Shown: positions 6,001 to 9,000 of the stretch, piece after piece
How the letters are laid out: each line of letters begins with the position of its first letter
How positions within the stretch are numbered: position 1 is the first letter of the stretch
From: Escherichia coli O127:H6 str. E2348/69
GTDB taxonomy: Bacteria; Pseudomonadota; Gammaproteobacteria; Enterobacterales; Enterobacteriaceae
Strand: one strand, 5' to 3'
DNA: 64,000 bases
NCBI RefSeq assembly: GCF_000026545.1
Contig: NC_011601.1
Position numbers: made by a program

Positions 6001-9000
6001 CACCGGCAGAAGATCCGGATATTCCGGCATCAGGATATTACGGTGCGGCATCGAGAACGAATGGAAACCAGGTATCATCAAACCGCCCGACACATTTCAG
6101 TTCATGGGCGCGCAGGAGCATTATTCCGGATCGTATGGCAACCGCTATTCTGAACGCAGCCGGGCGCACCTCAGCTTTCATCAGTGGTAAGGCACCGGAA
6201 ATCAAACCCTCGCCCGGCGGCAACACGCCATCGGGGCCGTCTGAAGATGCATCCGTACGCACAATCTCCCTGTTGCCGACAGCCGGAGAGGCTGCTGCGC
6301 AGGGCTGGACCATTAAGGACGGCGGAATTCAGTTGTCGGGTGGTGTATTTAAGATCGCCAAGCAGAGCAATAAAACCTGGTCCCTGATGCATCCGGTGGA
6401 TGACGCAGTCTCCCTGCTGACACGGGGTGGCAGACTGAGCTGTAAGTTTCGACTGTCAGGCGCACTGACCAACAACCAGTTCGGCCTGGGAATTTATCTG
6501 TATACCGATGTAGCGTTACCTGACGTCGTGGCGATGACCGGGACTGGTAACCCGTTCCTGATGTCGTTCTTCACCCAGACCACAGACGGCAAACTGAATC
6601 TGATGCATCACAAGAAAGCAGGAAACACAAAGTTGGGCGAGTTCGGGAATTACAGTAATGACTGGCAGACGCTGGAACTGGTGTTCACCGCCGGCAGTGC
6701 CACGGTTACTCCGAAACTGAATGGAGTGGCTGGCCCGGCATTCCAGGTCATAAAAGACAGTCTGACACTGGGGCTGAATGCGCTGACGCTGACGGATATT
6801 ACCAAAAATGCAGCGTATGGCGTTGAGATAGAAAGTCTGGTGCTGGAGATAAATGCACCGGCATCATCATAAAAAGTGAGCCAGCCAAATGGAAGGTATC
6901 GTTAAACTCACCGGTAGTGTCAGTGGGTCGTCTGAGATGCCTGCATGAGTTATCAGAGCCATCAGTACTTAACTGGTGGCTTTTTTTATTGTTGTCAGCT
7001 TCCGGATAACGGGAGACGGGGTATGGACCAGATGGAAAAAATCACAACAGGTGTGTCATACACCACGTCAGCGGTGGGAACGGGCTACTGGTTCCTGCAG
7101 TTGCTGGACAGGGTTTCCCCGTCTCAGTGGGCGGCAATAGGCGTGCTGGGGAGTCTGCTGTTTGGGCTGCTGACATATCTGACTAACCTGTATTTCAAAA
7201 TCAGAGAGGACCGTCGTAAGGCGGCACGGGGAGAGTAATTCAATGACTCAAAACTATGAACTGATTGTGAAAGGGATCCGCAATTTTGAGAATAAAGTTA
7301 CGGTAACTTTAGCGTTACGGGACAAAAAACGCTTTGACGGTGAAATTTTTGACCTGGACATCTCGCTGGACCGTGTTGAAGGTGCCGCGCTGGAGTTTTA
7401 TGAGGCAGCAGCCAGAAGGAGCATCAGACAGGTCTTCCTGGATGTTGCTGCCGGGTTATGTGAAGGGGATGAGCAGTCGCCGGAAAAGCGCCCCGTAATT
7501 TTAGAGGCGCAGAATGTATGGATAACCTACAAAGGAAAGCTACCGGGAAGAATTACTGGTTCTCTGAAGACTCCTCCGGAATCACAACCTTAAGTCACTG
7601 ACCGGAACAGATAAACCTGTCCGTGGGCAGAAACCGATAAATCCTGATAAATATCCATGAACGCAAAAATCAGATACGGCCTGTCGGCTGCCGTTCTGGC
7701 GCTGATTGCCGCTGGTGCGCCTGCGCCTGACATTCTCGACCAGTTTCTGGATGAAAAGGAAGGTAACCACACCACGGCATACCGTGATGGCGCGGGTATC
7801 TGGACCATCTGCCGCGGTGCCATCCTGGTGGATGGCAAACCTGTCGTTCCGGGCATGAAGTTGTCGAAGGAAAAATGCGACCGGGTTAACGCCATTGAGC
7901 GTGATAAGGCGCTGGCATGGGTGGAGAAAAACATCAAAGTGCCATTGACCGAACCCCAGAAAGCGGGGATCGCGTCATTCTGTCCGTACAACATTGGTCC
8001 CGGTAAGTGTTTCCCGTCGACGTTTTACAGACGAATTAATGCAGGTGATCGCAGGGGAGCATGCGAAGCGATTCGCTGGTGGATTAAGGACGGTGGCAGA
8101 GACTGCCGTATTCGCTCAAATAACTGTTACGGTCAGGTATTCCGTCGTGACCAGGAGAGCGCGCTGGCGTGCTGGGGAATCGACAGATAAGCAGAATATT
8201 TTGCTGAAAAATGAGGTTGGCCAACGCGGGCGGATAACACGAAGTCCTGTGAACTGGCAAAACCTAAGTGAATAAAAGTAAAAACCCCGTTTGTTGGCAG
8301 CAAGCGGGGTTTTGTTTTTATGGCAGTAAGCTATGGGAGGCTGCCTTGATTGATTTTAGCAAACTGATTAGGGAGTTGCGACTCATGATTAGTCAATTAC
8401 CAAACTGGAAATTTTTGCTGGTCTGGAGCATCCCTTTTTTATGGGTAGTATCCCAGTTAATTGTGGCAATTAAGGGGTAGCTATGTCAGACAAACTCATA
8501 ACGCCGGCAAAGGTCCTGTGTGTGATTGTCGGTATTTCATTTTCACTAATGCTGGTTGCTCTTTTTCTGTCCCTCGCCTGGGTGATGTTGTCTTCGTCGG
8601 GGCTGCTGGGGTGACAGTGACTGATGACATCAGCAGAGCGCTGGCTTTTGCTATTAAGTGGGTGGCTGTTGGTATTGCTGTGTCTCCGATGCTGTATGGG
8701 CTGGCAAAACTGGTCATTGCGCTGAAATCGTGAACTTTAAAAAGATGAGTGCTGAACTTATTCGGGCAATGGCATTTGCCATTCGTATTGTGGCCATTGC
8801 TGTTCTGGTCTGGGCAATCCGTTGGTGGTGATATGAACCGTGTTCTGTGTGTGGTGATTATTGTCATGCTGGTAGCCTGTGGTGTGCTTAGTCTGGGGCT
8901 GAATCATTACCGCGATAACGCCATCACCTACAAAGCGCAGCGCGATAAAAAAGTCAGTGAGCTGAAACTGGCGAATGCCACTATTACTGACATGCAGCAG

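Follow-up and report, generated by a model that had tools for sequence, protein, structure and literature searches.

The lysis operon of a lambdoid prophage was analysed in a 64,000-nucleotide stretch of the genome of Escherichia coli O127:H6 str. E2348/69 (contig NC_011601.1), hereafter referred to as the window, with attention to the 642 nt that separate the gene for a signal-arrest-release (SAR)-type lysozyme from the gene for the i-spanin Rz. This interval holds a terminator-like hairpin and then four small open reading frames (ORFs), ORF1 to ORF4, each encoding a hydrophobic peptide with one predicted transmembrane helix (Table 1). The guanine-plus-cytosine (GC) content of 8191-8831 is 46% as against 54-55% in the flanking genes. 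The segment 8281-8831 is very probably an accessory insert in a Q-dependent late lysis operon. It begins with a conserved terminator hairpin and a short leader, after which come four genes, coupled in translation, for single-pass inner-membrane peptides of 28-44 residues, which belong to the PHROG families 6632, 4906 and 1115/4493.

Table 1. Coordinates of the accessory insert and of the neighbouring lysis genes in the window (SD, Shine-Dalgarno sequence; aa, amino acids)
Feature	Position	Strand	Description
Intrinsic-terminator-like hairpin, left end of cassette	8281-8323 (stem 8281-8313 + T-run)	+	15 pairs; A-tract 5', T-tract 3', potentially bidirectional
Leader	8324-8345	+	SD GGGAGG 8335-8340, 5 nt before TTG 8346; corresponds in position to the leader AAGGCAAGGGAGAA that other cassette types share
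Predicted antisense promoter	8353-8382	-	-35 GTCGCA (8382-8377), 18-nt spacer, extended -10 TGCTAAAAT (8361-8353)
ORF1	8346-8480	+	Most likely 44 aa from TTG 8346 (MIDFSKLIRELRLMISQLPNWKFLLVWSIPFLWVVSQLIVAIKG, beginning MIDFSKLIRELRLM); internal ATG 8385 (31 aa) behind GGGAG; one predicted transmembrane helix, about residues 24-42
ORF2	8483-8614	+	43 aa (MSDKLITPAKVLCVIVGISFSLMLVALFLSLAWVMLSSSGLLG); SD AAGGGG 8472-8477; one transmembrane helix, predicted N-in
ORF3	8611-8733	+	40 aa from GTG 8611 (GTGA overlap with ORF2 stop); alternative GTG 8617; C-terminus ...SPMLYGLAKLVIALKS
ORF4	8730-8831	+	28 aa with start ATG 8745; alternative start GTG 8730 gives 33 aa (GTGA overlap with ORF3 stop; adds MNFKK); C-terminus of the ...VLVWAIRWW type
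Class II (S21-like) holin	7023-7238	+	Same operon; RefSeq annotation of 100%-identical DNA
YdfR	7243-7593		RefSeq annotation of 100%-identical DNA
SAR-type lysozyme (rrrQ-like), upstream neighbour	7657-8190	+	RefSeq annotation of 100%-identical DNA
Rz i-spanin, downstream neighbour	8833-9327	+	Annotated 'lysis protein'; begins 1 nt past ORF4 stop
Rz1, embedded in Rz	9053-9238	+	Annotated 'Rz1 family lipoprotein'

A preliminary description of the window had reported four back-to-back, single-helix hydrophobic frames with little space between them (2 nt from ORF1 to ORF2, ORF2 and ORF3 overlapping at GTGA, 1 nt from ORF4 to Rz), and this was borne out by the coordinates, by hydropathy and by a shuffling analysis. 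Each peptide has one 19-residue segment with a mean Kyte-Doolittle hydropathy of 1.9-2.9, and four or more hydrophobic ORFs were obtained in 0 of 1000 dinucleotide-preserving shuffles of the region (mean 0.34). Topology was judged by hydropathy and the positive-inside rule, in place of a dedicated topology predictor. The helix is followed by only 2-7 residues (KG, SSSGLLG, ALKS and (AI)RWW), of which 0-1 are charged.

The start codons required closer reading, as the calls vary with the annotation pipeline (31, 44 or 70 residues for ORF1; 40, 51 or 90 for ORF3). The sequence points to TTG 8346 as the most likely start of ORF1, giving 44 residues instead of the 31 described earlier, since an SD precedes it and the N-terminal stretch thus added is the best conserved part across genera and is under purifying selection. 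The lengths given earlier for ORF2, ORF3 and ORF4 (43, 40 and 28 residues) stood, with 33 residues as the alternative for ORF4. The statement that the array is invisible to an ORF track with a 60-residue threshold is correct only in part, as the mechanically called ORFs 8268-8480 (70 residues) and 8461-8733 (90 residues) enclose ORF1 and ORF3. The 70-residue call for ORF1 from GTG 8268 was rejected because such a frame would cross the terminator hairpin and because conservation in the orthologues does not extend to its N-terminal part, and the 51-residue call for ORF3 from CTG 8578, made by the Prokaryotic Genome Annotation Pipeline (PGAP), receives no support from the relatives. Nested starts with SD-like motifs are conserved, namely TTG 8346 with ATG 8385, GTG 8730 with ATG 8745 and, in the long form of ORF3, a segment KYKRILLRLT ahead of the methionine. 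Met14 is invariant in the ORF1 family and is preceded by an invariant GGAG, and the long forms of ORF3 and ORF4 carry an analogous internal methionine behind GAGG; two products may be made from one gene. Nested starts in which the longer form is the more basic are a hallmark of holin/antiholin pairs.

All four peptides match PHROG families in hidden Markov model searches: ORF1, in its 70-residue form, matches phrog_6632 (1.3e-12), ORF2 phrog_4906 (E = 4.5e-21), ORF3 phrog_1115 (E = 6.4e-25; phrog_3246 is listed alongside) and ORF4 phrog_4493 (3.8e-6, and 5.5e-16 for its long form). These families are all labelled 'unknown function', and their source names read only "hypothetical" or "membrane protein". 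In RefSeq, ORF2, ORF3 and ORF4 are each a "hypothetical protein" and the 70-residue version of ORF1 is called sometimes; the hypothetical proteins for the array are WP_001043230, WP_001280935, WP_042004856 and WP_032140280, and the number of contigs in which an identical protein is annotated ranges from hundreds to over 1000. NCBIfam gave no match for the peptides and Pfam none for any member of alignments A1-A3, in agreement with the earlier view that they cannot be assigned to a known lysis component.

The peptides are related to one another in part. ORF3 and ORF4, for which a common motif RA[LM]AFAI[KR] had been noticed, are indeed paralogues: ORF3 also matches phrog_4493, and alignment A1 shows variable N-terminal tails, a conserved RAxAFAI[KR] and a C-terminus of the type ...SPMLYGLAKLVIALKS or ...VLVWAIRWW, with natural hybrids between them. 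The C-terminal likeness described for peptides 1 and 3 is present (QLIVAIKG and KLVIALKS); the comparison of their profiles is weak (hhalign P=0.003, probability 9.8%), and the likeness is backed by the chimeras P0367 (...MFGLAKLLSSV) and P0377, which combine an ORF1-type N-terminus with an ORF3-type C-terminus. Most ORF1 orthologues end in ...IRWW, as does ORF4. The chimeric members and the shared C-terminal types, taken together, support the grouping of ORF1, ORF3 and ORF4 into one modularly shuffled superfamily, which the profile comparison alone would not carry. Duplication within the array had been proposed; the paralogy holds, and a modular shuffling of a wider family is the preferred origin because hybrids and different gene orders exist. 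Orthologues of ORF1, in which the segment IDFSKLIRELR.M is the best conserved, were found in Salmonella, Citrobacter, Enterobacter, Klebsiella, Providencia and metagenomes. ORF2 is unrelated to the other three by profile comparison and forms a separate family with conserved VGISF and W..L...GL.G, for which the search made returned Escherichia/Shigella records only.

Compared with full-length relatives, which have 60 residues (E. coli long ORF3) and about 50 residues (long ORF4), ORF3 and ORF4 of the window are 5'-truncated. The relatives carry, upstream of the PGAP-start methionine, a basic segment K-Y-K-R-(hydrophobic)3-R-L-T/S, which is kept through synonymous Arg and Thr codons (alignment A5). 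In the window this 5' region is missing altogether from both genes, which are joined on behind ORF2 through GTGA overlaps. Upstream ORFs of eight codons were also observed between the shared SD and long ORF3- or ORF4-type genes: MGREVLSL* in L010 of O157 (1653-1679), MCREVCSL* in L178/L179 of Salmonella (2486-2512) and MEGKTFAQ* in L182 (1421-1447). In L010 and L178/L179 the stop of the upstream ORF overlaps the GTG start of the main gene (GTGA); the E. coli long ORF3 has no such ORF.

Substitution patterns were compared between frames as the ratio of the proportions of nonsynonymous and synonymous differences (pN/pS), obtained by a simple Nei-Gojobori count. The long ORF3 has a pN/pS of 0.04 in its own frame (11 of 13 variable sites fall at codon position 3) and above 1 in the other frames, and the ORF3 core 0.25 and above 1, respectively. 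O1-type genes, that is, genes of the ORF1 type, have 0.32 in frame as against 0.79 and 1.85 out of frame, and their IDFSKLIRELR.M segment is under purifying selection (0.41 as against 1.46 and 2.14). Over ORF2 the ratio is 0.50 in its own frame and 1.33 in the frame of 8461-8733. Within the window-type array the ORFs vary at 1-6% of sites, compared with 16% in the leader region 8191-8384; this low variation is compatible with constraint as well as with recent spread and is, by itself, not informative on selection.

DNA identical to the interval 8191-8834 is present over at least 80% of its length in 586 of 5,426 complete E. coli genomes and in part in 2,067. A single-gene cassette of the H-19B type occurs in 899 complete E. 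coli genomes and one of the O157 type in 672. The collection scans gave the best 80 loci per query and the architecture frequencies are therefore biased. Among 172 related loci the modules occur in varied combinations and orders (R, endolysin; O1 to O4, genes of the types of ORF1 to ORF4): R-O1-O2-O3-O4-Rz as in the window, R-O3long-O2-Rz, R-O1-O2-Rz, R-Ant-O2-Rz in the Shiga toxin (Stx) phage P27, R-O4long-Rz in O157:H7, R-O3long-O4-Rz and further ones. ORF2 is always the second gene in the loci compared, after ORF1, long ORF3 or Ant. The junction of the ORF4 RWW-stop with the Rz start is common to the single-gene cassettes of the O157 locus L010, H-19B and SPN3UB. In H-19B (L183, AF034975.3, 1495-1632) and SPN3UB (L184, 2001-2138) the single gene is of the ORF1 type, encodes 45 residues (V[FI]D[FI]SKLIRE[IL]R[VL]M...IRWW) and stops 1-2 nt short of Rz; neither record annotates it, and four of the six rows listed for its 899 E. 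coli genomes have no feature under the match. O1-type and O3-type genes recur at the endolysin/i-spanin junction beside lysis proteins that are unrelated to one another: in Enterobacter prophages the companions are Phage_holin_8/3_7 holins together with a GH19 endolysin and a short spanin pair, and in Salmonella prophages a lambda-type holin with GH19, or a lysozyme with Ant. The Qin prophage of K-12 has none of these genes, its rrrQ directly overlapping rzpQ; its Rz is of a different type, and the borders of the insertion could not be defined from this comparison.

The hairpin at the left end is a conserved part of the cassette. In most of the contexts a homologous hairpin AAA(A/G)CCCCG...CGGGG(T/C)TTT, followed by a short leader with an SD, precedes the first small gene, as seen in E. 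coli, Salmonella, Enterobacter and metagenome phages; it is common to O1-, O3L- and O4L-type genes and to distant members, with the exception of the I/J site of Citrobacter (L177). Twelve consensus pairs are formed, four of them with compensatory changes. The hairpin belongs to the cassette rather than to the gene upstream, because at L182, L189 and L190 the upstream gene has its own terminator just before it. Across cassettes the start codon lies about 22-35 nt past the T-run. Promoters and terminators were called as consensus matches, and no plus-strand promoter-like site was found between hairpin and start in any locus scanned; in the window there is no sigma-70-like plus-strand site and the leader is too short for one. 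Sense expression is therefore inferred to need read-through of the terminator, that is, Q antitermination in late lytic growth. A candidate sense promoter upstream of long ORF3, AAGTATAAA, was rejected: a conserved -35 is missing, synonymous Arg and Thr codons mark the stretch as protein-coding, and the sequence coincides with the -10 of the minus-strand promoter.

The scan reported just one promoter-like site in each of three independent contexts; it is on the minus strand, within the 5' coding part, facing the hairpin (TGGACA-18-TATACT and TTGTCA-18-TATACT, 10/12 consensus positions each, and TAGTCA-18-TATACT, 9/12). O1-type genes, that of the window included, have a weaker -35 and an extended -10, TGnTA(A/G)AAT, which is kept in all O1-type relatives despite differing residues (FSK, SSK, FIK); the first 22 codons of O1-type genes show low synonymous divergence (pS 0.22 vs 0.71). 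The RNA predicted from the window site would begin near 8346 and terminate near 8272, at the hairpin with its U-run (fold z = -2.9). The predicted antisense RNAs of the relatives and the window would be 65-105 nt long, span the SD and the start and finish with the hairpin and then a U-run (z = -2.9 and -3.3). A second minus-strand site, CTGACA-18-CACAAT with an upstream TG (9/12), was observed at 8460-8489, where it spans the stop of ORF1 and the start of ORF2 and from where an RNA would run antisense across the whole of ORF1; inspection by eye showed no conservation of this site in the other architectures.

We propose tentatively, with somewhat less than even confidence, that the peptides are membrane-active products made only late, gated by the terminator and by the predicted antisense RNA, and that they tune lysis. 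With a hairpin and no sense promoter after it, the peptides would appear solely upon read-through by Q-modified RNA polymerase, late and together with the holin, the endolysin and the spanins. The minus-strand promoter in the first codons would yield a 65-105-nt antisense RNA over the ribosome-binding site, ending at the same bidirectional hairpin, which would add a threshold or a delay to translation. Once inserted in the cytoplasmic membrane, the peptides would serve lysis timing as accessory factors that are dispensable. They could help the pinholin/SAR-endolysin system in a holin/antiholin-like manner or by depolarisation, and the long and short isoforms from nested starts could have opposing activities. 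The peptides are small transmembrane proteins in or next to a lysis cassette, as holins are, and are not spanins, having essentially no extramembrane domain and no lipobox and being followed by a genuine Rz/Rz1.

Several observations weigh against this proposal, some of them against a strict role in lysis. Linkage to lysis genes is not obligatory, because relatives also occupy sites between the tail genes I and J (Citrobacter, S. salamae) and between baseplate V-like and W-like genes (SEN34, Rac-SA53), so that the genes are not specific to lysis cassettes, and distant relatives lie beside ParE/RelB and HicB modules upstream of the terminase. The genes are dispensable, being absent from many lambdoid phages such as K-12 Qin. 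The few residues at the C-terminus do not make up the charged C-terminal tail of holins, and the Pfam searches matched no holin family. The antisense promoter of the window itself is weak by consensus (8/12 plus TG). Finally, the pN/pS ratios rest on few, related sequences, and polymorphism within the window-type array is too low to show selection on ORF2-4.

Unlikely, but next in probability, is a role in prophage maintenance or abortive infection instead of lysis timing: the peptides would be depolarising toxins of type I toxin-antitoxin-like modules, with the predicted cis-antisense RNA as the antitoxin that silences them in lysogens. Peptides of fewer than 60 residues, hydrophobic, with a single helix and in tandem copies, are what such modules encode, and the conserved antisense promoter-like motif, facing a bidirectional terminator and overlapping the ribosome-binding site and the start, would suit them, as would the upstream ORF of the relatives, whose overlap with the main GTG start recalls mok/hok coupling, and the place of distant members among ParE/RelB and HicB modules. 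However, the cassette has no toxin promoter of its own and a terminator directly upstream, unlike known type I loci, and its genes are translationally coupled into Rz. Searches of NCBIfam and Pfam revealed no homology to the Hok/Gef, Ldr, Ibs, TisB, ShoB, Zor and DinQ toxin families or to other Pfam toxins, PADLOC gave 0 families for all five peptides searched, and Rfam searches of 6800-9800 (both strands) and of six related loci returned no family matching the antisense RNA and nothing relevant, known antitoxin RNAs included.

Somewhat less probable again is that the genes are morons for lysogenic conversion or superinfection exclusion, encoding inner-membrane proteins that the prophage expresses and that block DNA entry of other phages or alter the host envelope, as HK97 gp15 or P22 SieA do. 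In the sense of Hendrix and Juhala a moron is extra DNA of deviating composition between otherwise adjacent genes, and this is what is seen: the modules are present or absent between conserved late genes at the R/Rz, I/J and V/W sites, Qin lacks the insert, the contents of the R/Rz interval vary, the GC content deviates from that of the flanks, and the strong modular diversification is typical of arms-race genes. The same authors' promoter upstream and terminator downstream are not seen; the terminator lies upstream with no sense promoter-like site after it, and only some of the copies at tail sites have a downstream terminator. Moreover, the predicted antisense RNA would repress the genes in lysogens, and PADLOC again gave no match.

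It is improbable that the products are irrelevant, the frames serving as leader or spacer that delivers ribosomes to Rz by translational coupling, or being decaying remnants in a recombination linker. The tight spacing of stops and starts through to Rz, the truncation of ORF3 and ORF4, occasional frameshifted or stop-containing copies and the very low diversity within the window array type would all be explained, but purifying selection at the amino-acid level in the O1-type and ORF3 families, conservation of the peptides across genera and at sites without Rz, and the occurrence elsewhere of Rz genes with an SD of their own or with none of these ORFs are contrary to it. That the locus holds a single longer ORF, either 8461-8733 (90 residues), which the preliminary description had named as a possibility and on calls of which phrog_3246 is built, or the minus-strand 8496-8867 (123 residues), is scarcely credible: both are open in the window and the 90-residue call is in the databases, but the excess of nonsynonymous change across ORF2 in the alternative frame and the occurrence of ORF2 and ORF3 apart and in reversed order, which breaks both long ORFs, all but rule them out.

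A wider and distinctly doubtful extension of the lysis-timing proposal is that a portable regulatory cassette, widespread and so far unrecognised, would be plugged by the Q-antitermination phages of Enterobacteriaceae into any late-operon junction (endolysin/spanin, tail I/J or baseplate V/W). It would be made up of a bidirectional terminator, a short leader, a promoter for a cis-antisense small RNA (sRNA) embedded in the first codons and a dual-start, single-helix peptide of shuffled modules, and would serve as an auxiliary lysis clock, toxin-like and timed by antisense RNA, so that in effect a type I toxin-antitoxin design would have been recruited to set the time of lysis.

Other features of the prophage were recorded in the course of the analysis. 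A 74-residue ORF at 9324-9548, which identical genomes list as hypothetical protein WP_000736382.1, overlaps the Rz stop (ATGA) and adds one more to the uncharacterised small genes that are coupled with this lysis operon. The interval 6873-7022, between the gene for a SASA-family sialate esterase (5019-6872) and the holin, ends in a 12-pair terminator hairpin at 6955-6993 on the plus strand; Rfam gave no match in this interval. The prophage sRNAs PasA/PasC have been placed between esterase and holin (bioRxiv 10.64898/2026.05.13.724894), a location other than that of the predicted antisense RNA. In a Salmonella prophage with an ORF3-type gene, the region ahead of the holin contains a match to the Rfam sRNA STnc100 that exceeds the gathering score (86 bits; L178, 477-701). 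A 1550-bp insertion sequence that encodes a 457-residue IS4/Tn5-like transposase is present twice in inverted orientation (99.9% identity), at 3100-4649 (minus strand) and 41392-42941 (plus strand); the two copies flank about 37 kb that include the lysis and morphogenesis genes and could permit inversion or composite-transposon behaviour. Three tRNA genes (Met-CAT, Lys-TTT, Arg-TCT) are clustered at 2730-2970, ahead of the genes for the esterase and for lysis, which is where tRNAs and stx are found in Stx phages; the 3-5 kb stretch of the window, which is taken up by a copy of the insertion sequence, showed no stx gene. Tandem repeats with a period of about 162 bp and 88-91% identity (16605-17198) fall within an 893-residue ORF (14983-17664) and probably encode repeated domains of a structural protein, and dispersed repeats of about 135-140 bp and 88-93% identity (32196-32403, 33041-33174, 36546-36685) occur at the tail-fibre end of the prophage.

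The lysis cassettes of lambdoid phages, Stx phages among them, are usually described as holin, endolysin and Rz/Rz1. Extra membrane peptides inside the lysis operon occur in hundreds of complete E. coli genomes, the single-gene form being often unannotated (H-19B, SPN3UB and most of the listed RefSeq matches). A full-text literature search for the peptide strings returned no papers, and searches of the lysis and moron literature no paper describing these genes. If the peptides have a lysis-timing role, the burst size and the timing of toxin release of Stx phages would be affected; if the antisense RNA is real, it would represent a new class of prophage sRNA and show how a late gene can be timed by a means not described before. 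Cultivable phages, namely PhiR5_1 (PV340545) and the PhiR12 series, carry the cassette, which is short.

Among known systems, morons such as HK97 gp15, lambda bor/lom and the P22 'ant moron' resemble the cassette in insertion at alternative late-gene sites, deviating GC content and association with a terminator. Classical morons, expressed in the lysogen, have a promoter upstream and a terminator downstream, in contrast to the array with its terminator upstream and no sense promoter seen. In the P22 ant moron a late-operon insert is combined with a small antisense RNA (sar) against the ribosome-binding site (discussed in PMC2629481). The type I loci hok/mok/sok, ldr/rdl, ibs/sib, tisB/istR and zorO/orzO are alike in the tiny hydrophobic gene, the predicted cis-antisense RNA from ribosome-binding site to terminator, the coupling to an upstream ORF in relatives, the tandem copies and the residence in prophages, but differ in that the sense gene of the array is promoterless, behind a terminator in a phage late operon, and has no homology to known toxins or antitoxin RNAs. 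Accessory holin and antiholin proteins (lambda S107/S105, S21 71/68, P1 LydC/LydD/lydE, P2 LysA and BSPM4 ORF52) are likewise small, membrane-located, adjacent to the endolysin and dispensable, and those systems tune lysis timing. The array peptides have no sequence similarity to them; they are far smaller, consist of a single helix with few residues at the C-terminus, and also occur outside lysis cassettes. In the antiholins lambda S107 and S21 71 the longer nested-start product, with an additional N-terminal positive charge, opposes the shorter one, and the array, too, may possess nested starts with a more basic long form, comparable to the dual starts of S107/S105 and S21 71/68. Precedents for accessory membrane proteins that tune lysis are the products of the small genes lydC, lydD and lydE, directly after the SAR endolysin of P1 (PMC9025707), and ORF52 of the Salmonella phage BSPM4, a 64-residue protein with a single transmembrane domain that modulates the holin (PMC11657625).

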